A model generated the notes under the pieces. The model worked only from the letters and a program-made list of their open reading frames with translations. It was not told the origin of the DNA and ran no database searches. Positions 9,269-60,823 of a stretch of 64,000 nt of DNA are shown here, one piece after another; the first letter of the stretch is position 1, and every line of letters starts with the position of its first letter. The position numbers and the translations under genes were made by a program. Origin of the DNA: a virus (lineage: Duplodnaviria; Caudoviricetes); the IMG/VR virus record IMGVR_UViG_3300042288_001626; one strand, 5' to 3'.

Positions 9269-9525
9269 TTATATTCTATATTTGAAGGAATCAGCTTTCT
9301 TTGCGTGTGTATTTTAAATCCGGAAGGAATATGCGTTATGCCTACATATTTTTCATTTAACTTTGAGTCTATCTTAAACTGCTTGGGGCTTTTGTTAAGA
9401 ATGTCTTGAAGTATTTTATTTTTTGTTGTGTAGTCGCCTGCGTCAGACCGCTCCTTGGCCTCAATAAGCTTTCTAAGCTCTAAAGACTTGGCTAGCTTAA
9501 CTATATTGGCAGGCAGCAATCGCAT
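9265..9525 (-). CDS. Small basic protein with an N-terminal VKLA motif
   Basis: LIEAKERSDAGDY..KNKIL...YVGITHIPSGFKIH; TG-C-TATTAT lies 6 nt before the ATG. Confidence 0.7.
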   Translation of the reverse strand: MRLLPANIVKLAKSLELRKLIEAKERSDAGDYTTKNKILQDILNKSPKQFKIDSKLNEKYVGITHIPSGFKIHTQRKLIPSNIEYK

Positions 9526-14797: not shown

Positions 14798-14800
14798 GGC

Positions 14801-15862
14801 TTAAAAATGATGCTTACAAAAAAGTGTTCCGTCGCAGTATTGTTCCCATCCAGACGCTGACCATTCTTCTCCAATGCTACCGTCCCAGCCAGTCATATAA
14901 AAATTACCGTGAGGTCTTTTAAACGTCAGCCTATACGGAAGCACCTCTTGTAACGCTTTACAGTTGTACAAAGAGAATCCTCCTCCTTGCATCTCTACCC
15001 GTATCAGTCTAGGCTGCATGTCTTCAATTTTGGGAGTCTTACCCCATATGAAAGGTTGCATAGATAGGCATGGTGTCGAAGGGTCCAGTTTCTGCCTATA
15101 GTACCCTCCTACGCAAGCCACTTTCTTTTTCTGTTTCTCTAAATTTTTTATCTGCTCGTAGAGTCTTACAAATCCGTCCTCTGGAGGCTCCATATCGTCC
15201 TCTATTTTTAGTATATAGTCGAAGTGCTCGGAGGGTTCTTGCAGCAGTATCGAATAATTCACAGCCACATGAGCATGCTTGTGCATTTCTAGATAGTGGT
15301 CTTCAGGTTTAACCTCGTAAGGGTCTCCCAAATCTAAAATGTGTATGTCTCTATATTTTAAAGACAACTCACTCTTTAGCTGAACTTGTAGATTTTTTAC
15401 GTTTGTGTTTCCGCTATTATCTCCCAGAATCACATCAACTTCGACATCGTCAGGAAATTGCACATTTTTAATAAATTCTAACCAGCAGTCTCTTGAGGCT
15501 TTTGGAGAAAACATAGTAATTATGGCTACACTAGTTTTCTCTGTACTTTTAAAGTTAAAAAGTCTGGGCTTCGAAGGCACGTCAAAGGCTAAAGAATTTA
15601 TCGTGTAATTCGCGGCTACCGCCTTTTTAAAAAGCTCTTGAATCGATCCGAACTGCTTTTTGAAATGTCTTACTCCGTTGACGTTGATGATGTATATTCC
15701 AGGATAAGGCTCAGTCCAGATAGCTCTGCGGTCTGTGGGTAACTCCACTTCTGGAGCTGCTCCATCTCGCCACACGCTTGAGTCCACAAGCTTAATATGT
15801 TCCGTAGTTGTGTCATCTATAGCTGTGTGCAGAGCACTAAGCAATTTTTCTTCGGTTATCAT
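14801..15862 (-). CDS. GT-A fold glycosyltransferase-like protein with an N-terminal extension
   Basis: ILGDNSG, YILKIEDD, VGGYY, GGGFSLY and GWD. Confidence 0.65.
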   Translation of the reverse strand: MITEEKLLSALHTAIDDTTTEHIKLVDSSVWRDGAAPEVELPTDRRAIWTEPYPGIYIINVNGVRHFKKQFGSIQELFKKAVAANYTINSLAFDVPSKPRLFNFKSTEKTSVAIITMFSPKASRDCWLEFIKNVQFPDDVEVDVILGDNSGNTNVKNLQVQLKSELSLKYRDIHILDLGDPYEVKPEDHYLEMHKHAHVAVNYSILLQEPSEHFDYILKIEDDMEPPEDGFVRLYEQIKNLEKQKKKVACVGGYYRQKLDPSTPCLSMQPFIWGKTPKIEDMQPRLIRVEMQGGGFSLYNCKALQEVLPYRLTFKRPHGNFYMTGWDGSIGEEWSASGWEQYCDGTLFCKHHF

Positions 15863-48707: not shown

Positions 48708-49289
48708 TTACAATACAAAACGAGCCAGTCCTATTTTAGTTTTTTCTAGTTTCGAGTAGTAGTCTTCGTGCTCTTCGAGATGATCTTTCGCTATCTCTTT
48801 AGCCAGCCTAGCGTTTGTTGTATGCTCTTTCTCGTGCTCCTGCCCTTTTCGAAGTTCTTTTTTGTCGTATTCGCTGTCAGGCAGCTCGTCAGCCATGCCT
48901 CCAGAAAGCAGCTCTAGAGCTATCTTTAATGTGGGTGTTCGATGCTTCGGTATCTTGAATGTATCGTCTTTTGGAACACTAGGCTTATTCTCTTTCAGTC
49001 TCTTGTCTGTCAGTGGTTTTTCTTTAGCTGTATAGAGGTGATTAAAGTCAGCTGTCGGATCTGCGGCCAGTTTCTGCAATCCTAGCAATATAGAGGCAGC
49101 AAAACTATTTCCTGCCTCTCCCTTCTTCTCTGGAAGTTTAGAATGCTTTGTGGCTGCAAAGTCATGAAGCTGCTTCTCAGACATGCTGGAAGCAAGCTCA
49201 TGTATTTTTTTGTCATAGCTGCCTTTGCCTCTTTTTGCACTAAGCGCCATACCAAACAGTCTTTGTTGTGCTTCGCTTTTAGCAGGCAT
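48708..49289 (-). CDS. Two-module small protein: DUF3008-like plus DUF5661-like
   Basis: MPAKSEAQQRLFGMAL.AKRG...MSEKQL.DFA.TKH..LPEKK; GG.AD...EL.KG.EHEKEHT...AKEIAKDHL.E..DYY.KL; modules joined through QKLA and LKIA. Confidence 0.7.
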   Translation of the reverse strand: MPAKSEAQQRLFGMALSAKRGKGSYDKKIHELASSMSEKQLHDFAATKHSKLPEKKGEAGNSFAASILLGLQKLAADPTADFNHLYTAKEKPLTDKRLKENKPSVPKDDTFKIPKHRTPTLKIALELLSGGMADELPDSEYDKKELRKGQEHEKEHTTNARLAKEIAKDHLEEHEDYYSKLEKTKIGLARFVL

Positions 49290-49290
49290 A

Positions 49291-51780
49291 TTATCGAATA
49301 TTGTTGTATCCTTTATCTGCCCAGATTTGCTGCTTAGTCATACCTGGGTTGTTCCTCAACAATTGGTCAATATACTGTTTCTTTCTTTGATCTAGTGGCG
49401 AACGCTGATTATAGCTTCCCATAATTCCTCTATAATCTGCAGACGGAGCCGCAGGTGTTACAGGCTGACCAGGAGCAGGCATAGAAGGAGGTCTTACTGC
49501 AGGTTGCTGTTGTTGTGGCTGCTGCGCTTGAGGTTGAGGCGCATTCTGGAGCTGAACTGCTGGTGTTGTCCGGAAGTTAGCAACAGGAGGATTAGGCCCT
49601 TGTCCTTTAGGTACAGGCGATGGAGCAGCTGTCTGAGGTTGCTGAGGATTTACCTGATTATACGCATTATATGCTGCCATACTTAACCAGCTAGGGTCTG
49701 CATTTGCCGCTAGTTGAGGATTGCCTGCATATCCTTGCTGCTGCGCTTGCTGAACAAACGCCTGGTTCATCGGAGAGCCTGCAACAGCCAGATCAGGATA
49801 TTGCTGAGCGAGCCTAGCCTGCTCATTCTGATAGGTAGTCATGTTAGCTTTGTTCTGATCTGCTTGAACCTGGTCACCAAGCAGAGAAGAAGCATATCCA
49901 GGGTTACTTCTCCAAATGTGCTCCCTCATCATAGGAGGGATTTCATTATATCCAGGAGTTCTAGCTTGTGTACCAGCAGCAGGTCTTTGAGGAGCCGCTG
50001 GAGGCTGAGGACGAGCCACAGGTTGCACTGGAGTCGGGCGGACCTCAGGCTGGTCAATTATTTCAGGAGCACCTACAGGAACAGGAGTTCCTTTTGCTTT
50101 GAAGTATGCATTTCTGTCTGCATTGCTTGCCCAGCCTATGCCTGCATCCATATCCTTCTGATATTGATTTTGTCTGTTTTTCTGGGAAGGAGCAAACTGC
50201 CTCGTCAACCAATTGGCTTCTTTGGCGAGATACTCTTCCACAAAAGCCACGCCGGCATGCTTTGTTTGCCCTTCAAGAGCCTTACGCTCTTGTCTTTTTC
50301 TCACCATTTTAGCGACCTGCGCCAGCAAAAACGCCCCAGCACTAGCTCCTCCTAGAGCAGCAAGTGTTTTGATATTTTTGATCTTATTGTTCTTAACATC
50401 TTCTCGAATAGTTTTACCTATCTGAGAGAAATCAGACTCGTAGCCTGTTGTTCTGCCTGGAGCGTGAGGAACTCCTTCGCTCATGATCTTGGCAAGAGCC
50501 TCACCCCTATTCTCTCCCATAGTATCCCATGTATGAGCTCCTGGAAATTTACGAACAGTCTCTTCAGCATTAACAGGAAAATGCTTCATATAACCTTCAG
50601 GCTTATCGTTAGGCAGAACATTAATCATTCTTGGTACATGTTCTCCTGGCATACGCATCACTTCAGCCACTGTGCTTCCTGGTGTAGCAAAAACGTAATG
50701 AGCATCAGCAAAAGCCCCTGGCATATCGTCGATATGATCAAGCACCTGAAGTCCTTTGAATCTCCTTTGTCCTTCTGGGTCTTCTGTAACATACTTCCTG
50801 AGTTTCTCGATAAACTCTTTGTTGTCAGGCCATGTATTCGCTTTACCTAGTCCGGTAAGGAATTTGAGATTCACATTGTCTTCGCCATGAGTCTTTCTGA
50901 GATTCTCCATAATGTCATCAAGGAAGAATCTCTTGCTAACGTCATAATCACGCCATTGCTGTCCCTTGAGTCTCTCTTCAAGATTATATACTCCAGGACG
51001 ATCTGCTCCTGGAAGAAGTCCGGCATGCTCTTTAGGAAGCTCGTCAAACACCTGAGGCATCGCGTTACCTCCACCAGTAGTAAGCACAGCATTGATCTTT
51101 GCTCCAGGACTCCAGTCTTTCTCTTTAAACGGAGTCTGACCAAACACATCTCTCGTAGGAATGTTACCTGTCATTACTGTAGGAAGCTTACCCTGGTATT
51201 GTTCAGGCATAGGTATGCTAGGATCTCCTGGTGTAAAGAACCTATCGTAGCTCTTTGGGTCCTCACGCACAGCCATCCTGTCTCCTCCTACAGTCTCGAT
51301 GATCTTTCTCTTCAGTTTGTCTGAAGAAGACTCACTTTCACCTCCATGATAGAGAAGCTTGGGACTGATAAAGTTGCCTTCTCTAAAGTCACTGTTGATT
51401 CTGTATTTAACCTTTCCTATGTCTGCCAGATCTTTACCTGGAAACGAGTTATGTCCTACATAAATAGAAGCATCGGAGCCTGGAGCATCGAGCAATCGTC
51501 GAAATCCTCCCAGACGCTCTTTGTCTGCTGTGCTTGTCCAAGAGTATGGAGTGGCTTCGATACCTTCAGCCTTCAGCATAGATTCTAGCCCTTTAGCTTG
51601 ATTACCAAAAGATCCTTCTGCTCCGCTCATTACCTGTACTCTAGGAGCAGCCTCTGTATCTAATCCTCTTGTTCCGCCTCCTTGAATAAACCTATAGCCG
51701 CCAGCAAGACCAAGTCCGCTGCCAACATAATTAAGATATGTTTCCAGTTTGTGATCATTTTGTTTTTTTTCAGTACTCAT
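49291..51780 (-). CDS. Multidomain protein: GT28/MurG-MGDG-synthase-like glycosyltransferase, hydrophobic helix and Gln/Pro-rich tail
   Basis: VLTTGGG, FLTG, VLDHIDDMP.AF..AHYVFATPGSTVAE and NAE; then LAALGGASAGAFLLA, TKHA/AKEA, and a Q/P-rich region. Confidence 0.65.
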   Translation of the reverse strand: MSTEKKQNDHKLETYLNYVGSGLGLAGGYRFIQGGGTRGLDTEAAPRVQVMSGAEGSFGNQAKGLESMLKAEGIEATPYSWTSTADKERLGGFRRLLDAPGSDASIYVGHNSFPGKDLADIGKVKYRINSDFREGNFISPKLLYHGGESESSSDKLKRKIIETVGGDRMAVREDPKSYDRFFTPGDPSIPMPEQYQGKLPTVMTGNIPTRDVFGQTPFKEKDWSPGAKINAVLTTGGGNAMPQVFDELPKEHAGLLPGADRPGVYNLEERLKGQQWRDYDVSKRFFLDDIMENLRKTHGEDNVNLKFLTGLGKANTWPDNKEFIEKLRKYVTEDPEGQRRFKGLQVLDHIDDMPGAFADAHYVFATPGSTVAEVMRMPGEHVPRMINVLPNDKPEGYMKHFPVNAEETVRKFPGAHTWDTMGENRGEALAKIMSEGVPHAPGRTTGYESDFSQIGKTIREDVKNNKIKNIKTLAALGGASAGAFLLAQVAKMVRKRQERKALEGQTKHAGVAFVEEYLAKEANWLTRQFAPSQKNRQNQYQKDMDAGIGWASNADRNAYFKAKGTPVPVGAPEIIDQPEVRPTPVQPVARPQPPAAPQRPAAGTQARTPGYNEIPPMMREHIWRSNPGYASSLLGDQVQADQNKANMTTYQNEQARLAQQYPDLAVAGSPMNQAFVQQAQQQGYAGNPQLAANADPSWLSMAAYNAYNQVNPQQPQTAAPSPVPKGQGPNPPVANFRTTPAVQLQNAPQPQAQQPQQQQPAVRPPSMPAPGQPVTPAAPSADYRGIMGSYNQRSPLDQRKKQYIDQLLRNNPGMTKQQIWADKGYNNIR

Positions 51781-51797
51781 GGTTAAATTGATTAGGC

Positions 51798-52658
51798 TTA
51801 AGAATGACTTTTCTCTTTTTTATTATCATATATATGCTTCGCAGCGCCCACACCAGTCAATCCTGCTCCTGCAGCAGTCATTCCAAGTCCAGCGAGACCT
51901 GCCTTACCATACATTGCTCCCACCCCTGCTTTTTGTGCCTGCATGGTTTTTAAGATATGAAGAATGTCCTCATCTTTGGTGTTTCTAATATTGGCAAGCA
52001 CATCACCCTCCTGCTCTACAAGAGCTTTAAATTTTTCTGCGCGCCTCTCAAACTCCTGCATTTTCTTTGATGTTCTATGATCTTTGCCGGGCATCTTTTC
52101 CACATACTTGCCATCGTGCATAATATGTTTACCTTTAGCGCCTGGCTCTTTGGCATAAGTCATGTTTTCAAGATTATGCGCACGCATTTCATCGAGCCAC
52201 TTTAACAATCCTTCACGCTCGGGACCTGTAAACTTGTCGTAATGATCTATGGCTTCTCGTTTGGCTGCCTCTAGAGTAGGATAGGTTGGAGTTGTTTTTG
52301 CCTGACTTTTTGCAAACGCTTTAAACCCTTCCTTGTATGGAGTGTTTCCAAGCCCATGGCCGCTTTCAATATAGTCTGCCACAAACTCAGCAGGCATATA
52401 TTTTCTTCCAAAGTGTCTCGCTAGAAAACCTTCCGTCCCTTCTATAATAGCCTCAGTTTCAGGATTTCTCTTCACATTCATTCTAGGATCCATCAACTGC
52501 TTCAGAGCCATTTTGCTGGCAGGGATACTACCGGGAAGACTAAGTGCTCCCAGAGCAGCCAATGGTATACCTGCAATAAGAAACGGGTTAGTCTTTTTCC
52601 CTCCGGTTTCTTCTTCGGTTTTGGCGATTTTTTCTAACAGCTTAATGGCTTTACTCAT
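51798..52658 (-). CDS. Protein with two hydrophobic/glycine-zipper segments and an N-terminal EKIA motif
   Basis: FLIAGIPLAALGALSL; GKAGLAGLGMTAAGAGLTGVGAA. Confidence 0.7.
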   Translation of the reverse strand: MSKAIKLLEKIAKTEEETGGKKTNPFLIAGIPLAALGALSLPGSIPASKMALKQLMDPRMNVKRNPETEAIIEGTEGFLARHFGRKYMPAEFVADYIESGHGLGNTPYKEGFKAFAKSQAKTTPTYPTLEAAKREAIDHYDKFTGPEREGLLKWLDEMRAHNLENMTYAKEPGAKGKHIMHDGKYVEKMPGKDHRTSKKMQEFERRAEKFKALVEQEGDVLANIRNTKDEDILHILKTMQAQKAGVGAMYGKAGLAGLGMTAAGAGLTGVGAAKHIYDNKKEKSHS

Positions 52659-52720
52659 ATATTTGCACGGATTTGTTTATTACATTATATGTTGTAGTTT
52701 AAATTAACTCAACTCAGATT

Positions 52721-52754
52721 AAAAGAAAAGCCTGCGCAAAGGCAGGCTCTTTCT
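52721..52754. terminator. Intrinsic terminator
   Basis: AAAAG-AGCCTGC-loop-GCAGGCT-CTTTCT hairpin with flanking tracts. Confidence 0.75.
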
Positions 52755-52779
52755 AGGTTTAATATGGTGTTTTTAGCTG

Positions 52780-53298
52780 TTATCGAGGACTTGTTGCATT
52801 GATAGCTTGAAGATTACCTAAATAGCCTGCACCAGGACCTCCCATGTTAGCCGCCTGATTCTGAAGCATCTCGTTCGCTACTCCAGCATGGTTGTATCCT
52901 AGAGGATTTACATTGGAGGGATTAGCATCGCCAATGTTCAGTTTGGCTTGCCCCATCAAATTATGTCCTCCAACAGGAACAGACTCTCCAGACCAGCCAG
53001 GGCGAACAGCATCAGGACGGCTAGAGCCTGGGTAAGGAACATTCACACCCATCATCTGCTTCAACGGGGAAGCACTGTGTTGAATATATGATGCTGACGC
53101 CTCTTGAGGCGTTCTCTTTGGTTGCTGAATATAGGCTGCATCATTTCCAGAGATGAGTGGCCGCTGCAATGGCGACGGAATTCTACCAGGAACGGTATTA
53201 GCTGACTTCAGTAGAGCAACTGCCTGTTCGTCAGTATAGCCAAACTCATTTGCCTTTTTAACAAAGCCGTACAGATAAGATTTTTCGATGTTATTCAT
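52780..53298 (-). CDS. Low-complexity protein with an N-terminal YLYGFVKKA...LLKSA motif
   Basis: ATG at 53298; TG-C-TATTAT upstream. Confidence 0.7.
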   Translation of the reverse strand: MNNIEKSYLYGFVKKANEFGYTDEQAVALLKSANTVPGRIPSPLQRPLISGNDAAYIQQPKRTPQEASASYIQHSASPLKQMMGVNVPYPGSSRPDAVRPGWSGESVPVGGHNLMGQAKLNIGDANPSNVNPLGYNHAGVANEMLQNQAANMGGPGAGYLGNLQAINATSPR

Positions 53299-53341
53299 AG
53301 TTATTGCGGTTGTTCTAATAATAGCAGCCAAATATAAAAAA

Positions 53342-53788
53342 TTAAAGAGTTTTTGATACCTTTCTCTTTCCGTAAGCCTCTAGCAGCTTTTCTTTAACTG
53401 CGTCTGCATCTTTGTTTATTTCTTTTTCATCCAGTCGAAGCACAACATAGCCTGCTTTCTCAAGCCTCTTGGTCTTTTCTCTGTCTTTATACTCTTTCAT
53501 TGCTCCGCTATGCCAGTAGGTGCCGTCAGCAAAAACAACCACATTAGGAGCTATAAATATGTCTGCTACAGTAATACCTAGTAGCGGTTGTTGAGTGACG
53601 AATGCTATATCTAGAGCAGCTAGTATTTCTTGTAGCTTAAGCTCTATGCTTGTTTCTTTCCTGTCTCCAGACAAATAGCCTTTTATGCTAGCGCATTTCG
53701 TGCTGCAGGTTTTGCCTTGTCTCATTCTTTCTGTCTCTCTGTTCCATATCTTTCCGCATATGGAACATTCATGCGTTTTATGCCTCAT
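53342..53788 (-). CDS. DUF559/Vsr-like endonuclease with an N-terminal zinc finger (possible homing endonuclease)
   Basis: CSICGK...KTCSTKC; TSIELKL..IL....F..QQ....VADIFI....VVFADGTYWH...KD..KT..L...GY.VLRL.E.EI. Confidence 0.8.
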   Translation of the reverse strand: MRHKTHECSICGKIWNRETERMRQGKTCSTKCASIKGYLSGDRKETSIELKLQEILAALDIAFVTQQPLLGITVADIFIAPNVVVFADGTYWHSGAMKEYKDREKTKRLEKAGYVVLRLDEKEINKDADAVKEKLLEAYGKRKVSKTL

Positions 53789-55146
53789 TAAGCGATTATT
53801 TCTTTTATTACATTTCCAAATACATCGGTAAGCCTGAATGGTCTGCCGTTATACTCGTAGATTAGCTTTGTGTGATCAAACCCCATGAGCTGCAGTATTG
53901 TAGCGTGGAGATCGTGAACATGTACCACATCTTTCACAGATGTCGAGCCGATCTCATTTGTCTCTCCGTATTTCTGTCCGCCTTTTACACCACCTCCACT
54001 CATCCATATGCTAAAAGCTTTGCCGTTATGATCTCTTCCTGGTGCCCCAGCCCCTCCTCCAGCAATGCTCGTTCTGCCAAACTCACCTCCCCAAATCACT
54101 AGTGTAGAGTCTAGCAAGCCTCTTTGCTTGAGGTCTGTGAGCAGCGCACTAAATGCCTGATCATATCTTCCTGCTGTTCTAGTCATGTTTGTTTTGATGT
54201 CGCTGTGGTGGTCAAACCCTCCCACATTTACCTGAACCATCCTCACCCCTTTCTCTACAAGCCTACGAGCAAGCAGCATTCTTGCTCCCTCTTCTGTGCG
54301 TCCATACAAATCTTTTATTGTCTCAGGCTCTCTGCTGAGGTCAAAAGCATCTGTAGCCTCAGTCTGCATCTTAAAAGCCACCTCAAAAGCCTCTATTCTA
54401 GACTCTAGCTGCACATCTCTTTGCAGCTGCTTCATGTGATCGAGATTCATCATTTTTGAGAAATCTATCTGCCTTCTCTGCCTGTCGAGAGTAGAGAACT
54501 CGCTGCGTATGTTGTTGAGAGCCTCTTCTGCTCTCATACCGAGCTTATAGTTTATGTTACACCCTTGATACATGCCTGGAAGAAAAGCGCATTGCCTCCA
54601 GGTAGCGTCACCATTCAAGGTTACAAAGCCTGGCATGCTCTGATTCACGGTTCCAAGACCATACACGAGCCATGAACCTAGGCTTGGCTTTGGCAGCTGT
54701 GTAGAGCCTGTGCTCATCATCTTTTGAGCAATGCCATGGTCTGGCACATCTGTCTGCATAGAATTGATGATAGCCATATCATCCGCATGTTTACCCAGCT
54801 TTGACCATACCTCAGATATCTCTAGACCTGATTTGCCAAATCGTGGAAACTCAAAAGGAGAAGCAAGCAGCTGTCCTCCTCCATCATTCACTCCATCTCT
54901 TTTTTTTAGCTCTGGCTTAAAATCAAATGTATCAAGATGAGAGGGTGCCCCTGTAGCAAAAAGATGAATCACCGCCTTTGCTTTTACAGGGAAGTGAGGA
55001 TTTTTTGGTTGCAGTGGGCTTGCTCCCTCGGATGTTGAAACACCGAACAGTGAGGCTAGTGAAAGACCCCCAAGGCCCCAGCCAAACTTGGTGAGCAGCT
55101 CTCTTCTAGTTGTAGGATTAGTGTCGTGATTACCGCAGTCTTGCAT
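53788..55146 (-). CDS. DUF1501 family protein with twin-arginine N-terminus (second subtype)
   Basis: TTRRELL, KAKAVIHLF..GAPSHLDTFD.KP, PSLGSW..YGLG, GFDHH, WGGEFGRT and GRDHN. ATG at 55146. Confidence 0.9.
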   Translation of the reverse strand: MQDCGNHDTNPTTRRELLTKFGWGLGGLSLASLFGVSTSEGASPLQPKNPHFPVKAKAVIHLFATGAPSHLDTFDFKPELKKRDGVNDGGGQLLASPFEFPRFGKSGLEISEVWSKLGKHADDMAIINSMQTDVPDHGIAQKMMSTGSTQLPKPSLGSWLVYGLGTVNQSMPGFVTLNGDATWRQCAFLPGMYQGCNINYKLGMRAEEALNNIRSEFSTLDRQRRQIDFSKMMNLDHMKQLQRDVQLESRIEAFEVAFKMQTEATDAFDLSREPETIKDLYGRTEEGARMLLARRLVEKGVRMVQVNVGGFDHHSDIKTNMTRTAGRYDQAFSALLTDLKQRGLLDSTLVIWGGEFGRTSIAGGGAGAPGRDHNGKAFSIWMSGGGVKGGQKYGETNEIGSTSVKDVVHVHDLHATILQLMGFDHTKLIYEYNGRPFRLTDVFGNVIKEIIA

Positions 55147-55333
55147 AGTCTTTTGTGGTTTGTATAATCTACTTATGAAACGTATCTGGTATATATGGTC
55201 CAAGGCAATTGGCGAAAAGTCTCACAAAGACAATGAAATTGCAGATCAAATAGCAATAATAAGAACTTTAATTATTTTTTGCTATATAATCACCAACATC
55301 TTCATCGTTGCTGGAATAATACGCCACTGGTGA

Positions 55334-56605
55334 CTAGGTGAGCAGGTCGTGCATAACACTTCCGTTATACACGATTTTTACAGGCCTTCCGCCTCCTCCT
55401 TCAAGAGTACCTTCAGGGTTGATGCCTATCTGATGGTATAGTGTGGCAGCGAGATTCTCTACTGTTACAGGCTTCTCATCAACATCATCTCCTGTGACGC
55501 TAGACTGACCATACACTAGTCCTTTTTTGAAGCCTCCTCCTGCAAAAACAACAGAGAACACTCTAGGCCAGTGATCTCTACCTGCATCTTTGTTGATCTT
55601 TGGAGTGCGTCCAAATTCAGAACTGATCATCACCAGTGTAGAGTCTAGCATGCCTCTCTGTTCGAGATCAGTTATCAAGGTGGAGTAGGCCTGGTCAAAA
55701 GCAGGTAGAGCCTTGCTTATGCCGTTGCCTATTGTTGTGTGCATGTCCCAGCCGCCGTAGGTAACAGACACATATCTAACCCCTGCCTCTACCATTCTTC
55801 TGGCCATAAGAAGTCGCTGACCTGCCTGGTTTCTTCCATAAGCATCTCGCATAGCCTGAGTCTCACGATCTATTGCAAAGGCCTCTCTGGCTTTTGGAGA
55901 AGCTATAAGGTCATATGCCTGCTGATAGAAAGTATCCATAGCAGACAAAGAGTCGCTCTTTTCTAGATACCTGAAATGACTGTCCACTGTATCGAGTATG
56001 GACCTTCTTCTGTCAAAGCGCTCTTCCGATACGTTTGATGAAAGATCTCTTACCTTGAATCCCTCGGCTGCAGGATCGCTTCCCAGACTGAATGGTCCGT
56101 ATGCTGTGGGCAAGAAGCCTGCGCCAAGAGCATCTGTGCCGTTATTCTCCATCTTTTGAGGTATACAGACATATGCAGGCAGGCTGTTTCTTCCTCCCTG
56201 CTGTTGAGATATTACAGAACCAAAAGATGGATAGGTTATAGCAGGAGAGGGCTTGTAACCTGTAAACATACTAGTTACTCCTCGCTCATGCGCAGCTTCG
56301 CCGTGGGTCATCGAACGTACAACAGTCAGCTTGTCCGCAATTCTAGCTGTTTTGGACAGATGCTCAGAGAAATGTATTCCTGGGATGCTTGTGGCTACAG
56401 ATTTTAGAGGTCCTCTATACTCAGAAGGAGCGTTTATTTTTGGATCCCATGTTTCCTGTGCGGCTGCTCCGCCAGGAAGAAATATATGAATAACCGAGCT
56501 AGCCTTTGGAACTGTTGCAGACTCTGCCTGTAGTTTAAGCACGTCTCCCAGACTCAAGCCTAGTCCACCAAACAATCCTGTGTATAGAAATTCACGTCTG
56601 TTCAT
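55334..56605 (-). CDS. DUF1501 family protein with twin-arginine N-terminus (first subtype)
   Basis: MNRREFL, SVIHIFLPGG..AQETWDPK, PS.GSVIS, GWDMH, SEFGRTPKIN and GRDHWP. Confidence 0.92.
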   Translation of the reverse strand: MNRREFLYTGLFGGLGLSLGDVLKLQAESATVPKASSVIHIFLPGGAAAQETWDPKINAPSEYRGPLKSVATSIPGIHFSEHLSKTARIADKLTVVRSMTHGEAAHERGVTSMFTGYKPSPAITYPSFGSVISQQQGGRNSLPAYVCIPQKMENNGTDALGAGFLPTAYGPFSLGSDPAAEGFKVRDLSSNVSEERFDRRRSILDTVDSHFRYLEKSDSLSAMDTFYQQAYDLIASPKAREAFAIDRETQAMRDAYGRNQAGQRLLMARRMVEAGVRYVSVTYGGWDMHTTIGNGISKALPAFDQAYSTLITDLEQRGMLDSTLVMISSEFGRTPKINKDAGRDHWPRVFSVVFAGGGFKKGLVYGQSSVTGDDVDEKPVTVENLAATLYHQIGINPEGTLEGGGGRPVKIVYNGSVMHDLLT

Positions 56606-56606
56606 A

Positions 56607-56972
56607 TTATTTGTATGTTTTGGGTTTAGCTGTTCTGCTCTTCGGTTTTCTTATAACTGCTCTCTTTTTCTTGCCTGCTGCTTTCTCTTGCATTTCCTTA
56701 AAAAGCTCCCACTGCCACCAGCTAAGCCAGAAAAAAGTAACGCTGATTCCAACATTTAAAATCACTTCTGTAACTGGAGGTGCGCTAAGAGTGAGTACAT
56801 TCGCCGAAGCTCCGCAAATCACAATAGATAGTCCTCCTTTAGCAAGCCAGGCCTTCACGCTATTATCCCAGACAGGATTATCAGGATCACCGAATATGTG
56901 AATGAGCAGTCCAAGAGCAGAAAGGGACGTGGTTATATTGGCAACGGCATTGATGGTGGTCTCTGTAATCAT
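56607..56972 (-). CDS. Small membrane protein (about 3 TM) with a basic C-terminus, holin-associated
   Basis: Hydrophobic helices followed by a K/R-rich tail. Confidence 0.65.
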   Translation of the reverse strand: MITETTINAVANITTSLSALGLLIHIFGDPDNPVWDNSVKAWLAKGGLSIVICGASANVLTLSAPPVTEVILNVGISVTFFWLSWWQWELFKEMQEKAAGKKKRAVIRKPKSRTAKPKTYK

Positions 56973-56973
56973 A

Positions 56974-57348
56974 TTAGTCTATCCTTGGTACATTTCTTTT
57001 CCTGGGCTTTCTTCTTCTGTAAGAATAGGCTGTCTTTTGTGCACTTTCATGCAGCTCTTTGTGCGCAGACTCTGGAATGATTTTTCGACTAAAATATTCG
57101 ATGCCTCTCAGTCCAAGGAAACCAAGCAGAAAAGCTATTCCATAGTGGTAGTGTGTATTGTCTAACTTTGTTACGTTAACCACAATAGGAGTTAGATAGT
57201 TAGCGCTGGCTGCTCCTCCTATTAAACTAGATATTGTTCTTGTTAAGTTTACCGCTGTATCCTTACTTGTAAGCAATATAGCGCCAAACAACCCACTCAT
57301 GAGTAAACCTACATCTATACCGTACTCTTTTAGGTTGTTTTGATTCAT
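56974..57348 (-). CDS. Holin-like membrane protein
   Basis: GLLMSGLFGA...SLIGGAASANYLTP...GIAFLLGFLGLRGIE, then a basic tail. ATG at 57348. Confidence 0.6.
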   Translation of the reverse strand: MNQNNLKEYGIDVGLLMSGLFGAILLTSKDTAVNLTRTISSLIGGAASANYLTPIVVNVTKLDNTHYHYGIAFLLGFLGLRGIEYFSRKIIPESAHKELHESAQKTAYSYRRRKPRKRNVPRID

Positions 57349-57349
57349 A

Positions 57350-60232
57350 TTATTTCTCTTTGTCTGCGTTAGGCTTTTTCTTTTCAGTTTTTGGTCTGCA
57401 ACTATCCTCACTATATGCTTCTTTTCCAGGAACAGGTTCATAGCCTTCCCAGCATCTGCCTGACCCTTGCTTTACATTTGCTTGTGGAGGTCCGGCATAT
57501 GGTAAGCTCAAAGGTTCTTTGAACTTACCGTGGTATTCTCTAAATGATTTATCAAACCCAGGGTTATTTTTCCGTAAATTTTTAGATAGTGGACGGCCAA
57601 CCATTTTAAATGGATCAAACTCTGGAGAAATTTTCTCAAGAGTTTGTGACATATATTTTCCTATGGGAGCCATTATAGGCATAGCCGACTGATTAAATTT
57701 TTGCACAGCCGCCATGTGGTCAGGGAGGCTAACATCTAGACTTTGAGGAAGTGTGAGCCCTTCGGTGTGTATGAAATCCTGTAATGGTGCAATTAGATTA
57801 GTCCCCGTCCGGTATGTATTATATCCTGCACTTGCAGTAGGTGTGTATTTTTGCTGTAGAGCTTCAGGAACTCCGAGCCGTTGCATCTCTCTCAATGCAT
57901 TCGTATTTGCAGTGTTTTCTAGTTGTAGTGAAACTGCAGGCATTTTAGTTTTAAGCTCTTGTGTCATAGCCGAAGGATGAGTAGTCATTTGCCTGTATGC
58001 CTCCAGTACCTTATCTTTATCTAAAAAATGTCCATATTCGTGCCAGAACTTCGCAAGTGGGGAGAATCCGTCTTTTCTATATTTTCCAGTTATTTGAATC
58101 ATATTTTCAATAGGCGAGTATTCTGAAGTGCCCATAACTCTACGCAATTTACCTCCAGAGGCTTTAAAGTTTCTTAGTATGTTTTTACTAGCCGACAGAG
58201 TCATTGCCTGTTTCTCTGTGATCGATTCACTATGTTCTGTAACAGGTTTGCTTTGACTGGCTGCAGAAGCTGCTTGTTTGCTCATTAGTGCACGCAGCTG
58301 AGAAATTAGAGGTTCTATCTGATGCTCTGTATGATTATAGTTGATAACCCCTGGAAGCTTCCTGAACTTCTCAATTCCAGGCTCCCAGAAGTCTACTACC
58401 GCTCTCGCTTTCATTTGCTTTTCTAGAATTTCTTCTGGAGAAAATGTGACACCTTTCTTTTTAGCTGAGCGAGCAATTCTTTGAGCTATACTTTGCTCAG
58501 GATCTCCTCCCACAAGAATATGTGCTCTATATTTTGCGAGCTCTTCAGGAGTCATATGTCCTAACTGAGCTCCCTCAATAATTGAAGCGGGAGGACTGTT
58601 ATCTATAGTGTGCTTGTTTGCTCTGTGTACAAGGTCTGTATAGAACTTGTGCTCGTCTGTGCCTGGGGTTAGCGACTTTTGCCAGCGTCCGTGGTCATCT
58701 TTAGTAACATATTCTTTAAACTCAGGATGCTTATCCACACTATGCAAAGGTAGACCAAGTTTTTCAGCTATCGTTTGCGCCAGTGTAGTTTTTCCTGCTC
58801 CGCTGTGTCCTGTGACTAGAATAGATTGCGCCGGATCGGCAGCAGCTTGTTTATTCATCAGTGCACGCAGCTGCTCTATCAAAGGCTCTACCTCATGCTC
58901 TGTGTGATTATAATTAATTACACCAGGAACCTTTTTAAACTTCTCCATTCCTGGACTCCACGAGTCAGCTACCATTCTGGACTCTAGCATTTTTCTATCT
59001 AGATCTTCAGGAGATAAGGTTATTCCTTTTTTAGCTGCTTTGTCTGTCATACGCTGCAACCGCTGAGCTATAGACTGCTCAACGTCACCACCCACAAGAA
59101 CATTAGCCATATATTTTTTGAGCTGTCTTGGTCCTAGTGTGGTTACCTGTGTACCTTCAAGAACAGCTGGACCCTCCATCTCTTTCAGAGACTTGCCTAC
59201 AATCTTTCGAATATCTTTGATATACTGCTTATTCTCAGCGGAACCTGGAGTTAGAGCGAGTCTTTCATAGTCAGGTCTACTCTCTAAATCTGCTCTTAGA
59301 TTGTCCCAGCTCTCCTGAGCATCTACTCTATGTAGTGGAATATTTAATTTCTCTGCTAGCGCTTTAGCTAGTGTGCTCTTACCAGCTCCGCTGTGTCCTG
59401 TAACCAGTATAGTCTTACTTGGATCAGCTGCTCCTTCTTTACTCAGCTTATCCCATTGTTTCTTGTCTGGATAATCCTCGTCTCCAGGCTTAGCTGCTTT
59501 CTCTCCACGCTTTCTTTTTGCATGAATATTTGCCCATAAACCAGGCCGCTCACCAGACTGCTTTTCGTTCTTTTCAGTTTGTTGAAAAGACTGCTCTGTT
59601 TTTTCAACAGGAAAACACAAGTCACCTTTCACCTCATACCCTTCAGGCACACTATATCCCATATCCTTGAGATATTCACCACTGAATGCTTCTCCCTTGT
59701 CTATAAGCTTAGCCACCTCTTTAGGTACCCCTGCCACCTTCTCGATATACGAGTATATGTCTAGTACTTCGGCGCTTTTCTCCAATCCAGTGTATTCCTC
59801 AATATCCAGATCATAACCAAGCTTGCCCAGCAGCTCCAGGTCTTCGGGATTTGTATACTCCTCACCATTCACATCTATAATCCCTGTGCTTCTTCTATAC
59901 TCTGCAGTCTTTCTGCTTGGTGTTCTGATGGGTTGAGTAGCTGCTGATCTATATGCATTAGTGCCACTCAGCTGAGGAGCAGGAGGCGGCTGATTGCTTG
60001 GAGGTGCTTGAGGTTTTGGTGCTCCTTGTTGAGGAACTGTGGGACTCTGTACAGGTTTGAAGTTTTTGTCTGCTACGCTAAATGACGTGGTCATTGGGTT
60101 GCCTCGAGCTACAGGCACACCTACCTGCTGAGGCAATACCCCCAGATGATTCTGTGCCACCATACCAGGAACACTCGGAGACACTGAATGAGCAAGGGCG
60201 ATCTTTTCAAATAGCTCTCTTATAGAATGCAT
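57350..60232 (-). CDS. 960-aa modular polyprotein-like protein: two tandem P-loop NMP-kinase-like domains, an HExxH domain and short basic modules
   Basis: ILVTGHSGAGK[ST]T twice, WHEYGH, PGLWANIHAKRKRG and CWEGYEPVPGK modules; about 10 K-x-A/S/G junctions. Confidence 0.8.
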   Translation of the reverse strand: MHSIRELFEKIALAHSVSPSVPGMVAQNHLGVLPQQVGVPVARGNPMTTSFSVADKNFKPVQSPTVPQQGAPKPQAPPSNQPPPAPQLSGTNAYRSAATQPIRTPSRKTAEYRRSTGIIDVNGEEYTNPEDLELLGKLGYDLDIEEYTGLEKSAEVLDIYSYIEKVAGVPKEVAKLIDKGEAFSGEYLKDMGYSVPEGYEVKGDLCFPVEKTEQSFQQTEKNEKQSGERPGLWANIHAKRKRGEKAAKPGDEDYPDKKQWDKLSKEGAADPSKTILVTGHSGAGKSTLAKALAEKLNIPLHRVDAQESWDNLRADLESRPDYERLALTPGSAENKQYIKDIRKIVGKSLKEMEGPAVLEGTQVTTLGPRQLKKYMANVLVGGDVEQSIAQRLQRMTDKAAKKGITLSPEDLDRKMLESRMVADSWSPGMEKFKKVPGVINYNHTEHEVEPLIEQLRALMNKQAAADPAQSILVTGHSGAGKTTLAQTIAEKLGLPLHSVDKHPEFKEYVTKDDHGRWQKSLTPGTDEHKFYTDLVHRANKHTIDNSPPASIIEGAQLGHMTPEELAKYRAHILVGGDPEQSIAQRIARSAKKKGVTFSPEEILEKQMKARAVVDFWEPGIEKFRKLPGVINYNHTEHQIEPLISQLRALMSKQAASAASQSKPVTEHSESITEKQAMTLSASKNILRNFKASGGKLRRVMGTSEYSPIENMIQITGKYRKDGFSPLAKFWHEYGHFLDKDKVLEAYRQMTTHPSAMTQELKTKMPAVSLQLENTANTNALREMQRLGVPEALQQKYTPTASAGYNTYRTGTNLIAPLQDFIHTEGLTLPQSLDVSLPDHMAAVQKFNQSAMPIMAPIGKYMSQTLEKISPEFDPFKMVGRPLSKNLRKNNPGFDKSFREYHGKFKEPLSLPYAGPPQANVKQGSGRCWEGYEPVPGKEAYSEDSCRPKTEKKKPNADKEK
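58271..59431 (-). repeat. Tandem duplication of a ~190-codon kinase domain (58844-59431 and 58271-58843)
   Basis: Both copies start AAD P and end V-I-N-Y-N-H-T-E-H..EPLI.QLRALM[NS]KQA; DNA similarity is visible at both ends. Confidence 0.85.
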
Positions 60233-60304
60233 AATTTTTATTTTTTGTGATGTATTTGCCTATTCTAAGACAAAAAATGTTTAAATTGTGCAGAAACAGG
60301 ACAA

Positions 60305-60823
60305 TTAGATCTCTCCACTCCTCCTTCTCTCCATCATTCTCTTAGCATGATCTGCAAAATCTATTTTTTTATTTTTAAAATCATTCAGCATGATCTGCTC
60401 TAGTTTGTTTAAAGGTACCTGAGGATTACTGTGTATTCTTCCAAGCATCTCAGGAGCGAGGTCATGCTGATAGTAGCTATTGATTGCTCTTTCTCTTGCA
60501 AGATGTCCTGAAAATGCTCCTATGCCTGCTCCAACCAATCCTCCGGCCGTGGCTCCTCTTAGGGCAGATGAAAGTCTGCTTTTCCTGATCTTCTGTCCTG
60601 TTCTAGGATCTATACGAGTGTCTGGATCGATCACACCCCCTATTCCTCCAGCCAGTGCTCCTGCAGTTCCTCCCACAGCTGCTCCTCCAGTTCTGAACCC
60701 TGTTGCTTTCGACCGTATGATATCCATGGCCTTCTGTTTTAGTTCTGAGCTTATCTGAGCTGCAGGAAGAGTGTTTGCTTTTTTAATAAAGCTAATGATG
60801 TTGTTTTTAAATTCAGGGTTCAT
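60305..60823 (-). CDS. Glycine-zipper membrane protein with an N-terminal IKKA motif
   Basis: GGAAVGGTAGALAGGIGG; GATAGGLVGAGIGAFSG; TATAAT lies 6 nt before the ATG. Confidence 0.75.
   Translation of the reverse strand: MNPEFKNNIISFIKKANTLPAAQISSELKQKAMDIIRSKATGFRTGGAAVGGTAGALAGGIGGVIDPDTRIDPRTGQKIRKSRLSSALRGATAGGLVGAGIGAFSGHLARERAINSYYQHDLAPEMLGRIHSNPQVPLNKLEQIMLNDFKNKKIDFADHAKRMMERRRSGEI

Follow-up and report, generated by a model that had tools for sequence, protein, structure and literature searches.

A Lys-x-Ala signature at module borders of phage mosaic polyproteins, a putative site of a T4-like head protease

The mosaic polyprotein P0001

The window, that is the whole 64,000-nt stretch analysed, comes from a large phage that is uncultured, and carries a block of 11 genes between 48708 and 60823; all features described below are on the minus strand. 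The 960-aa mosaic polyprotein P0001 (57350-60232) was mapped by its translation, an AlphaFold2 (AF2) domain map and its mosaic homologues, and consists of a leader helix, a disordered spacer, module A, the GLWANI module, two P-loop kinases, a HExxH region and the CWEGY Cys module, in this order. No homologue of this polyprotein was found in cultured phages. A preliminary description had placed K-x-(A/G/S) motifs at the borders of these and neighbouring modules; all the sites that it named are present where it put them, and the coordinates of NKQA, SKQA, TKHA and AKEA were reproduced on recomputation (4/4).

The leader helix (residues 1-15; 60188-60232) ends in F-E-K-I-A, with K-I-A at 60197-60205. 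It is predicted as a helix at residues 2-14 (block pLDDT 90) followed by disorder at 16-114, and hydrophobic-x-K-x-[AGS] is kept in the leaders of P0001 homologues. K-T-A (K108; 59903-59911) closes the disordered spacer immediately ahead of module A, with breakpoints of homology at residues 106 and 114 and predicted order starting near residue 115; K-x-A is conserved at this site in five of the six homologues read. Two further sites, E-K-S-A (K152) and E-K-V-A (K165), at 59732-59779, had also been taken as module borders. This did not hold, as both fall within module A in a single homology block (residues 114-214) and neither is at a demonstrated border; K165-x-A is kept in all homologues read and K152 in some only.

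The portable P-G-L-W-A-N-I-H module (residues 227-264; 59441-59554) matches phrog_11180 and phrog_22379 and occurs in 34 viral contigs in differing protein contexts. It is preceded by K-Q-S (K224; 59555-59563) in a linker predicted at residues 212-230, with breakpoints at 224-228, and is separated from the first kinase by K-E-G (K265; 59432-59440) at the end of helix 257-266, with breakpoints at 269-272. Homologues have K-K-G, K-E-S, K-A-A or K-A-S at the latter position. The kinase families AAA_18/AAA_33 are matched twice in Pfam. Copy 1 (residues 268-463; 58844-59431; pLDDT >90) ends in M-N-K-Q-A (58844-58852), and copy 2 (residues 464-654; 58271-58843), also delimited by AF2, ends in M-S-K-Q-A (58271-58279). 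The two copies are 50% identical and the motif keeps its register in both, in agreement with the earlier claim that the motif delimits the duplication. In the L001 homologue, moreover, the L-R-A-L-M-S-K-Q-A end of kinase 2 is followed by another module.

Downstream of the kinases, K-Q-A (K674; 58205-58213) follows a predicted linker (661-671) at the start of a helix ahead of the HExxH region; a single homologue covers this part. The HExxH region (57473-58204), with W-H-E-Y-G-H at residues 730-735, is a possible zincin-like metallopeptidase module, to judge from this motif. It gave no Pfam or PDB sequence match and is modelled with low AF2 confidence. Of the 58 homologous polyproteins, 15 contain HExxH, with 16 motifs in all where 2.1 would be expected. 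Finally, K-Q-G (K921; 57464-57472), with a breakpoint at residue 920, opens the C-terminal C-W-E-G-Y Cys module (57353-57472 with the motif), and K-E-[AGS] precedes all four homologous copies read.

Other genes of the block and exchange of modules

The 829-aa protein P0002 (49291-51780) has an N-terminal domain, a hydrophobic Gly/Ala helix, T-K-H-A (50254-50262), A-K-E-A (50215-50223) and a Q/P-rich tail. The N-terminal domain matches no Pfam family, and neither Pfam nor further searches lent support to the label "GT28" that it had been given. The 193-aa P0003 (48708-49289), in turn, does contain the two modules proposed for it, DUF3008 (E=2e-12) and a DUF5661-type module (E=1.3e-7) in Pfam. 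Three K-x-[AG] sites lie between them, E-K-K-G (49119-49127), Q-K-L-A (49065-49073) and L-K-I-A (48918-48926), with homology breakpoints at residues 56 and 121-124; K-I-A precedes the DUF5661-type module also in the relatives G001 and L006.

Short leaders ending in the motif head several proteins. In the 286-aa P0004 (51798-52658) the leader ends in L-E-K-I-A (52623-52631), kept as Y-L-E-K-L-A in the G001 orthologue, and Gly/Ala-rich hydrophobic segments follow. P0005 (52780-53331), translation of which probably begins at the ATG at 53298, has a two-helix leader of about 33 aa, with K-K-A at 53251-53259, K-S-A at 53200-53208 and HSP ends piling up at residues 31-36; this leader family heads many unrelated proteins and is also found internally, after K-T-A. 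F-I-K-K-A (60776-60784) closes the leader of the 172-aa P0006 (60305-60823), for which no orthologue was found in G001, and glycine-zipper segments come next. Outside the block, an 86-aa ORF (9265-9525) has a leader ending in I-V-K-L-A (9490-9498), which its G001 orthologue keeps as F-V-K-L-A. Five of the 11 block genes lack an N-terminal hydrophobic-x-K-x-A: a Vsr/DUF559-like endonuclease and two DUF1501 paralogues, assigned by Pfam (53342-56605), and two small ORFs.

The earlier proposal that domains are shuffled as cassettes agrees well with the comparisons. The G001 orthologue of P0002 keeps T-K-Q-A and K-I-A, and directly after this conserved pair a DUF5661-type module like that of P0003 replaces the Q/P tail. 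A complete leader-bearing gene, its former Met included, has been fused in frame after K-T-A. A kinase at the N-terminus of one protein keeps a 15-aa L-I-K-N-A leader that a distant kinase homologue lacks, indicating that the motif does not belong to the kinase fold. As judged from such alignments, modules move as cassettes carrying the motif. The domain repertoire of these polyproteins includes P-loop kinases, NUDIX, MazG, KTSC, DUF3008 and PF19846.

Position and clade specificity of the signature

By count, the motif is at chance: K-x-[AGS] occurs 23 times in P0001 (20.0 expected from composition), 13 of them additional copies inside domains, and 206 times in the 53 ORFs of the window (237 expected); likewise, the block proteins have no excess of K-x-A. 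The preliminary description had cautioned that position, not count, is the evidence, and indeed frequency is at background whereas position is far from it. With any BLAST HSP end beyond which at least 30 aa continue in both proteins taken as a breakpoint, 86 of the 237 breakpoints in the window and its relatives have K-x-A no more than 8 aa away (36.8 +/- 4.9 expected), as do 57 of the 176 internal ones (23.4 +/- 4.2 expected). Among 58 homologues of P0001 K-x-A lies within 5 aa of 206 of 729 breakpoints against 85 expected (z=14, a value that, like the others given here, overstates significance because breakpoints and contexts are not phylogenetically independent). The same set narrows the motif as first proposed: Ala stands and Ser is more weakly enriched (z=6.8), but Gly is at background (z=-0.2). 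About 70% of these breakpoints have no K-x-A nearby, HSP ends being imprecise. In the AF2 model of P0001, five of the ten K-x-A sites have the edge of a domain or linker no more than 6 residues away, where about 1.4 would be expected (hand count), in line with the enrichment at predicted domain edges that had been suggested.

K-x-E is somewhat enriched at the breakpoints of the 58 homologues (z about 5). The controls E-x-A, R-x-A, K-x-L, Q-x-A and K-x-K show no enrichment, nor does the reversed A-x-K, which is evidence against mere Lys/Ala-rich linker composition. In its fuller form the consensus reads [LMI]-[ESN]-K-[TEKQ]-A, with small residues after it. At the junctions, codon choice for Lys and Ala does not differ from background, which points to selection on the protein and not to a DNA recombination signal; by this measure, the signature is selected at the protein level.

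In the genomes compared, the K-x-A junction signature is clade-specific. T4-like phages that have a protease of Pfam S77 and the Gp23 capsid protein, analysed by the same procedure, showed no enrichment of K-x-A at breakpoints (8 vs 10.4 expected) or in head genes. The GLWANI module is shared by both groups. Within the 12 residues upstream of it, the clade of the window has K-x-[AS] in 24 of its 25 distinct contexts, which are otherwise dissimilar (background 17%). In the T4-like clade K-x-[AS] is found there in none of eight contexts and [LIV]-x-E in all eight (background 13%). The latter is the type of site used by T4 gp21, and the head proteases of T4, phiKZ and SPN3US all cut at short motifs ending in Glu, after the Glu (PMC5694885). 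In these alignments, then, the border motif of the module changes with protease type.

A candidate head protease and the possible role of the signature

The 64,000-nt window contains no protease, scaffold or capsid gene, so that the search for a prohead protease yielded a candidate only in relatives, the evidence coming from G001 and G002, which are syntenic with the window. In their head modules K-x-A ranks first of all 400 a-x-b patterns, with 76 copies against 32.8 expected (p=9e-11) and 72 against 32.5. Scaffold-like proteins contain 15, 17 and 16 copies (2.4, 4.8 and 5.1 expected), and together with the protease candidate have 11-17 copies each. The candidate matches phrog_18299, "head maturation protease" (E=1.8e-9); His104 and Ser155 are invariant, conserved K-x-A sites flank the catalytic domain, and there is a Cys-rich insertion. 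Its family has no match to Pfam Peptidase_S77. Among 48,161 PDB chains its predicted fold, a model of modest quality (mean pLDDT 63), is best matched by T4 gp21 (5jbl_A, Z=8.7) and then by the VZV protease (Z=7.5); a Foldseek search of the PDB gave no significant match. N-terminal hydrophobic-x-K-x-A tags are found in 12 of 24 genes of the G001 head module (p=7e-7) and in 8 of 17 of the G001 block syntenic to that of the window (p=5.5e-5), versus 14 of 192 elsewhere.

According to these data, the signature most probably serves as the cleavage signal for a T4-like head protease of the phage itself. Of the original proposal of a Lys-x-Ala protease signal, clade specificity, the GLWANI border swap and the gp21-like fold in relatives speak in favour, whereas the behaviour of Gly and the untagged block genes do not fit; the reading is partly supported, and by comparison. 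We consider it somewhat better than an even chance that the block encodes mosaic polyvalent and leader proteins of the same tagged class as the head proteins, hydrophobic-x-Lys-x-Ala/Ser being the putative site of a gp21-like head protease, with leaders that load and modules that are cut apart. A protein would be carried into the prohead by a short N-terminal helix with the signature at its end, and the helix would then be removed; in T4, the capsid-targeting sequence plays this part. Between modules, the signature would allow the protease to cut the long chains within the capsid into separate enzymes and peptides, namely two nucleotide-kinase-like domains, a HExxH domain and small Cys or helical modules. 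We propose that, with its own site on each module, shuffling, duplication, fusion and splitting could occur without loss of processing. Here we infer that the protease recognises K-x-A, that internal sites are cut besides the leaders and that the block proteins are packaged and ejected. Counting against this are the chance-level count in block proteins, the many breakpoints without K-x-A and the position of K152 and K165 inside a conserved module.

Less probably, portable helical adaptors or leaders that bind (for instance the scaffold, the portal or each other) and act as flexible connectors have the motif as their conserved end, with leaders alone or nothing cleaved and the long proteins left intact. 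Junction K-x-A sites in the AF2 model of P0001 do lie at the C-terminal ends of predicted helices, and the 33-aa two-helix leader recurs as a unit, as does the Q-L-x-x-L-M-S-K-x-A helix, which is found also where its kinase is missing. Moreover, the virion RNA polymerase of phage N4 is packaged without being processed (PMC5512222), and in SPN3US, of the giant phages the one studied best, nearly all cuts take off N-terminal propeptides without dicing of polyproteins (PMC10052503), which counts against internal cutting. However, adaptors leave unexplained the abundance of the motif in scaffold-like proteins and in the protease candidate itself, the shift of the GLWANI border to the T4 cut-site type with a T4-type protease, and the many junction sites in varied non-helical linkers, e.g. 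E-K-T-A-S-x-x-K-P.

We regard it as improbable that a different protease is responsible, either the zincin-like HExxH module of the polyproteins, in cis or in trans and possibly after injection, or a host enzyme. W-H-E-Y-G-H in P0001 and the excess of HExxH among its homologues would suit such a role, and processing of polyvalent proteins by zincin-like metallopeptidases has been proposed (PMC5512222), but 43 of the 58 polyproteins have the same junction motif and no HExxH, the HExxH region has no family or fold match here, and the density of the motif is highest in the scaffold-like head proteins and the serine-protease candidate, as is the hallmark of a prohead protease code. Just as doubtful is the absence of any dedicated function, the motif being a by-product of Lys/Ala/Glu-rich linkers, of junctions copied along with modules or of BLAST end bias: it is short, at chance by count in the window and found in contexts related by descent, and K-x-E hints at a linker-composition effect, but the control patterns, the T4-like clade, the dissimilar GLWANI contexts and an unbiased 400-pattern scan that ranks K-x-A first in three head modules, that of a cultured phage included, all speak against it.

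In the T4 system of gp21 and the capsid-targeting sequence (IPI-III, Alt, gp24), as here, short leaders on unrelated proteins end in a three-residue motif that is also dense in scaffold or core proteins and the protease, and gp21 is the best PDB match of the predicted fold in the syntenic relative (Z=8.7). The differences are a hydrophobic-x-Lys-x-Ala/Ser motif instead of L/I-x-Glu, a protease unmatched by Peptidase_S77 and with a Cys-rich insertion, motifs also between the modules of mosaic proteins of 500-1,650 aa, and tagged genes partly outside the head module. The large phages phiKZ (gp175), 201phi2-1 and SPN3US (gp245), with sites of the S/A/G-x-Glu or A-x-Glu type, similarly have many packaged or ejected proteins, one gp21-like protease and a short motif, and their propeptides hold several motif copies (PMC10052503, PMC5694885). 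However, all characterised members cut after Glu and nearly all SPN3US cuts are propeptide removals, whereas the putative sites described here, known from sequence, mark off many modules on a single chain. Among cultured phages, the nearest one with a member of the protease family is Salmonella phage Arash (OQ632216; gp222, 28.7% identity), a distant relative only, in whose head genes gp218-226 K-x-A is the top over-represented a-x-b pattern (46 vs 21); its published virion proteome has 116 proteins (PMC10585845), and the metabolic enzymes detected in particles have no K-x-A leader.

In principle, picornavirus 3C and retroviral Gag-Pol offer a parallel, in that a protease encoded by the virus cuts one chain at short motifs in its linkers while the particle matures, but there is no homology, and those chains are the core proteome whereas the ones described here are accessory and mosaic and belong to a tailed dsDNA phage. 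The polyvalent proteins of phages and conjugative elements (Iyer, Burroughs, Anand, de Souza, Aravind 2017; PMC5512222) are also long, with 2-15 unrelated enzymatic and small domains, mosaic architectures, frequent HExxH and predicted capsid packaging and processing. For these, autoprocessing by a zincin-like metallopeptidase was proposed and no junction motif was named. In the present case the repertoire is one of P-loop kinases, NUDIX, MazG, KTSC, DUF3008 and PF19846, and a specific junction signature co-varies with the type of head serine protease.

Gene content of the block and motif counts

The K-x-(A/G/S) triplets at module borders of the block 48708-60823 had been described as a prohead-protease signal for packaged cargo, and the reading of Lys-x-Ala junctions as a protease code, with cleavage, packaging and ejection proposed, appears to be partly supported by the sequence comparisons reported here. 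The minus strand carries every gene of the block. In order of decreasing coordinates these are P0006 (60305-60823), with a short leader and then glycine-zipper segments; P0001 (57350-60232), a mosaic polyprotein of 960 aa in which P-loop kinase families are matched twice (Pfam AAA_18 and AAA_33); two small ORFs; two DUF1501 paralogues (E=6e-112 and 9e-128) followed by a DUF559/Vsr-like endonuclease, all within 53342-56605; the leader-bearing P0005 (52780-53331); P0004 (51798-52658), with a leader and then Gly/Ala-rich hydrophobic segments; P0002 (49291-51780), of 829 aa and without family match; and P0003 (48708-49289), with DUF3008 (E=2e-12) and DUF5661 (E=1.3e-7). Outside the block the window encodes collagen-like fibre genes, glycosyltransferases, PhoH and ribonucleotide reductase, and no capsid, scaffold or protease gene was found within its 64 kb.

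AAA_18 scored 47.7 bits (cut-off 29.4) and AAA_33 40.2 bits (cut-off 27), each on two stretches of P0001, and the Walker A loop G-H-S-G-A-G-K-[ST] occurs twice, which supports the assignment as P-loop nucleotide kinase-like. The DUF3008-like and DUF5661-like modules of P0003 proved to be Pfam HMM matches above the gathering score (47.5 bits for a cut-off of 24, and 32.3 bits for a cut-off of 27, respectively). The GT28 label given to P0002 was not sustained: there was no Pfam family at E<=0.05, no PHROG and no PDB sequence match, its Atlas feature scores (<=0.80) are in the chance range, and its N-domain found nothing significant among PDB sequences. No similarity to cultured phages was found for the block DNA, and the sole match of the block proteins to them was one 29-residue module. 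The DUF1501 pair and the DUF559/Vsr-like gene carry no K-x-A leader inside the tagged block, an arrangement kept in G001 (184-kb viral contig of a relative, syntenic with the window); DUF1501 is unusual for a phage. In its longest form, ORF 56974-57441 (minus strand) shares 92 nt with the 3' end of P0001; because its G001 orthologue aligns only from residue 32, translation probably begins at a downstream Met directly adjoining the stop codon of P0001.

Every site named in the preliminary description is present and its four coordinates are exact. Its caution that position, not count, is the evidence was well placed, as counts are at chance: P0001 contains 23 K-x-[AGS] for 20.0 expected, 10 of them named there and the other 13 inside domains, and the 53 window ORFs together contain 206 for 237 expected from composition, with no enrichment in raw counts per protein or over the whole window. 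P0002 has only 2 for 12.2 expected, and none in its N-domain (residues 1-506). Site avoidance was rejected as the cause, as the G001 orthologue has many K-x-[AGS] in the same domain; since it does not share the depletion, this is probably lineage noise.

The structure of P0001 predicted by AlphaFold2 from an alignment of homologous fragments comprises a helix (residues 2-14), disorder (16-114), module A (~115-211), a linker (212-230), the portable P-G-L-W-A-N-I-H (GLWANI) module (231-266), kinase 1 (270-463), kinase 2 (466-660), a second linker (661-671), a low-confidence helical HExxH region, a third linker (897-925) and a Cys module from ~926. By hand count, of the ten K-x-A triplets, five are no more than six residues from a predicted edge, for ~1.4 expected (binomial p ~0.006). 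The kinase duplication is indeed bounded by the motif: the copies, 50% identical, start at K-x-(G/A)-A-D-P and end at L-R-A-L-M-x-K-Q-A. Two of the sites placed at borders, K152 (E-K-S-A) and K165 (E-K-V-A), turned out to lie inside one conserved module.

Head modules and candidate protease of relatives

In an unbiased scan, K-x-A tops all 400 a-x-b patterns in the G001 head module (76 vs 32.8, p=9e-11) and in that of G002, a 198-kb viral contig of another relative (72 vs 32.5, p=2e-9); it is not first in the control region nor in the window's own block. It is dense in the scaffold-like proteins of the two contigs (15, 17 and 16 occurrences for 2.4, 4.8 and 5.1 expected) and in their protease candidate (11 for 4.2 expected), and the likely capsid protein of these head modules starts with M-E-K-I-A.

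The candidate prohead protease was found in a relative, not in the window: G001 14077-15525, a gene of the head module, matches PHROG phrog_18299, 'head maturation protease' (E=1.8e-9). Its family has at least 236 members, with no precomputed Pfam domain on any of the 120 listed. His104 and Ser155 are invariant in the alignment, which also contains a Cys-rich insertion. Conserved K-x-A sites flank the catalytic domain, with E-K-T-A (then G-Q-T-D) immediately ahead of it and S-L-K-L-A and S-K-K-A behind it, the layout expected if the candidate were to trim itself. The N-terminus M-I-K-F-S/T is invariant in the family. The conserved insertion (C-x-W-C ... R-C-x-H-I-P ... C; L047:14077-15525, alignment A2), which follows the catalytic Ser and precedes the domain end, might form a metal site that T4 gp21 lacks.

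When the protease model (mean pLDDT 63) was compared with 48,161 PDB chains, the best match was T4 gp21 (5jbl_A, Z=8.7, rmsd 3.9, 134 residues) and the second was the VZV protease (Z=7.5). Foldseek of the model against PDB was not significant, with herpesvirus proteases among the weak rows only. By sequence, neither Pfam Peptidase_S77 (PF03420) nor Gp23 matched in G001 or G002, and three T4-like records match S77 at E=1e-26 to 1e-27; a T4-like protease sequence used as query found nothing in the two contigs, hhalign of two-sequence protease alignments aligned the N-R-N-G motif only, and PDB sequence searches with the protease and capsid candidates gave nothing significant.

A distant cultured member of the protease family is gp222 of Salmonella phage Arash (28.7% identity). 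K-x-A is the top over-represented a-x-b pattern in Arash gp218-226 (L067, 146737-151607; 46 vs 21, p=1.7e-6), and L-V-K-E-A occupies residues 24-28 of the capsid protein gp226, just before a conserved N-arm that the G001 capsid candidate shares. The published Arash virion proteome comprises 116 proteins, with no peptide-level data (PMC10585845), and its supplement is an annotation table without peptides. The metabolic enzymes reported in the particles have no leader and their genes lie in the early-gene region; therefore, they do not support a kinase or pyrophosphatase cargo. Arash is thus a test bed, not evidence, and the hypothesis is testable in it now.

Leaders, module junctions and breakpoints

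The leaders described as ending in the motif are conserved in orthologues or homologues for P0001, P0004 and ORF 9265, and P0005 has one of a shared family. This two-helix leader of ~33 residues, A-Y-x-x-G-F-x-K-R-A ... L-L-K-x-A, is not in Pfam or PHROGs and heads many unrelated proteins besides P0005 (window 53200-53298, minus strand; L003:2042-2476; L006:1327-1839; L004:12559-13812; G001 136423-137568). It is also found inside proteins: one copy follows DUF3008, and another is an entire former gene start, with its Met, fused in-frame behind K-T-A. Proteins of the window, G001 and G002 show a 2.6-3.8 fold excess of [LIVMF]-x-K-x-A over their first 30 residues. Counted up to residue 45, hydrophobic-x-K-x-A occurs in 12/24 head-module genes of G001 and in 8/17 genes of its block syntenic with that of the window, as opposed to 14/192 elsewhere (p=7e-7 and p=5.5e-5, respectively). 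In the window, 4/10 block genes are tagged versus 6/45 outside (p=0.07), and 5/11 genes of the block are untagged. It may be that only these leaders are removed and that the internal sites stay uncut, as nearly all substrates of SPN3US lose leaders only (PMC10052503).

The internal sites behave as part of the modules that follow them: recurrent modules each keep K-x-A/S directly upstream, irrespective of the preceding sequence. The context is E-K-x-[AS]-x-x-[KR]-P-G-L-W for the GLWANI module, K-x-A/S in 6/6 copies read of the A-W-Q-R-S-E-G-K-N-P-E-G-G module, K-E-[AGS] before every homologous copy read of the R-C-W-E-G-Y module (K-Q-G in P0001 itself), L-K-S-S before the KTSC domain and K-x-[AG]-A-D-P before the kinases. 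A kinase located at a protein N-terminus retains a 15-residue leader ending in L-I-K-N-A, and a distant kinase homologue starts without one, so the kinase fold does not include the motif. After its hydrophobic helix, the P0002 orthologue in G001 keeps T-K-Q-A and K-I-A.

Other rearrangements were seen in the same proteins. G001 143935-145860 (L054) joins the N-domain of P0002 to the DUF5661-type module of P0003, which takes the place of the Q/P-rich tail and DUF3008, and the swap point relative to window 48708-51780 is directly after the conserved K-x-A pair. The C-terminal 40 residues of P0002 (49294-49420, minus strand; G-S-Y-N ... L-D ... I-W-A-D-K-G-Y) recur mid-protein in a leader protein, G001 136423-137568, and resemble a further small portable module. 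The helix at the kinase C-terminus, Q-L-Q-Q-[LI]-M-S-K-K-A, appears twice without kinase in P0008 (L003:2493-5834; residues ~255-275 and ~660-680), one copy joined directly to a truncated KTSC start, which suggests that helix plus site are an independent unit or a recombination scar.

Processing could also be carried out by the HExxH (possibly zincin-like) modules rather than by a head protease, and such autoprocessing has been proposed for polyvalent proteins (PMC5512222). HExxH is present in P0001 and in 15/58 of its homologues, with 16 motifs for 2.1 expected. However, 43/58 of these polyproteins do not have it, and the many copies of K-x-A in scaffold-like proteins speak for the head protease. 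The HExxH region of P0001 itself gave no HMM match, no significant PDB-sequence match and no confident fold.

The position of the motif was evaluated at breakpoints, defined as BLAST alignment ends where both proteins run on for at least 30 residues and clustered within 10 residues, after removal of near-identical contexts and collagen-like proteins. P0001 has highly mosaic relatives in viral contigs, G001 and G002 among them. In a first sample (window, G001, G002 and four further loci), K-x-A lies within 8 residues of 86/237 breakpoints for 36.8 +/- 4.9 expected, and of 57/176 internal ones for 23.4 +/- 4.2 expected. The matches are concentrated in the polyprotein family and head proteins, and large tail and fibre proteins give none. 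In this sample none of E-x-A, R-x-A, D-x-A, Q-x-A, K-x-L and reversed A-x-K exceeds expectation, and K-x-[GS] is not significant. In a second sample, of 729 breakpoints in 58 P0001 homologues from a 5.8-billion-protein collection, at a distance of up to 5 residues, K-x-A was found at 206 for 85 expected (z=14) and K-x-S at 102 for 54 expected (z=6.8), with z=-0.2 for K-x-G and 1.8 for A-x-K, these z-values being inflated because the items are related by descent. Thus, of the third residues originally admitted, Ala holds, Ser is weaker and Gly finds no support. The junction consensus is [LMI] at -2, Glu/Ser/Asn at -1, Lys, Thr/Glu/Lys/Gln, Ala and then small residues, often A-A-D-P. The asymmetry between K-x-A and A-x-K, together with the flat controls, argues against a simple Lys/Ala-rich linker composition as the cause.

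The GLWANI module is also found in T4-like phages, where the genes for a Pfam S77 protease and the capsid protein Gp23 lie ~10 kb away. The 12 residues upstream of it contain K-x-[AS] in 24/25 distinct contexts of the window's clade (background 17%); in the T4-like clade they contain K-x-[AS] in 0/8 and [LIV]-x-E, the T4 gp21 type of site, in 8/8 (background 13%). That the border motif changes with the protease family is difficult to account for if the border is not a protease site. T4-like breakpoints show no enrichment of K-x-A (8 vs 10.4 expected), nor do T4-like head genes, where L-x-E is modestly raised; [LIV]-x-E is not significant over all T4-like breakpoints (64 vs 59.9) and stands out at the GLWANI border only. 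In these contigs (L007-L034, e.g. L014:9293-11089) the [LIV]-x-E before GLWANI lies within an acidic linker in 8/8 contexts, and the GLWANI proteins of T4-like phages may be unrecognised T4-type head cargo. A DNA-level recombination signal was rejected, because at the junctions and in the leaders the codons for Lys and Ala follow background usage, which places the conservation in the protein.

Proposed processing and comparison with known systems

We tentatively propose, as a possibility that we rate at somewhat below even, that in a mostly uncultured clade of ~180-215-kb phages (at least 236 protease homologues, with Arash as distant cultured member) a gp21-fold protease of new Lys-x-Ala/Ser specificity dices packaged polyvalent proteins. 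The prohead would serve as the polyprotein-processing chamber of this protease. Mosaic polyvalent proteins would enter it via the leader, later clipped, and would then be diced at every module seam into separate enzymes or peptides to be ejected with the DNA, and each module would evolve as a cassette of its own, 'site plus domain'. If this is true, the packaged proteome would be predictable from sequence, with a rule listing the proteins packed and injected by a whole clade of large environmental phages. A real code would also show that gp21-type head proteases are not confined to 'cut after Glu', give the polyvalent-protein idea a concrete processing signal and enzyme, and explain the free domain shuffling in these proteins. 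The T4 capsid-targeting sequence serves as a tag for loading foreign proteins into capsids, and leader plus site could be another portable tag of this kind.

The system resembles the T4 capsid-targeting sequence/gp21 and the phiKZ/SPN3US head proteolysis in the gp21-like fold predicted for the G001 protease and, as regards T4, in the short N-terminal leaders on unrelated proteins, ending in the motif, and in the density of the motif in scaffold-like proteins and in the protease itself (G001, G002). However, the characterised relatives T4, phiKZ, 201phi2-1 and SPN3US all cut after Glu (PMC5694885; PMC10052503). The motif here is K-x-A and not a Glu-ending one (L/I-x-E, S/A/G-x-E), with E-x-A and similar patterns flat, and the protease candidate, unlike T4 gp21, is not matched by the Pfam S77 model. 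As both 'cut after Glu' and Pfam S77 fail, we set it apart from these systems as a variant, not a member. In architecture the block proteins match what Iyer et al. (2017) define as polyvalent proteins: P0001 combines two kinase copies, an HExxH region and three small modules, and its homologues, of 500-1,650 aa, carry NUDIX, KTSC, PAP2, DUF3008 and PF19846 in varied orders, as well as MazG-like domains according to their source names. What is new with respect to polyvalent proteins is a defined seam signature, tied to a candidate head protease.
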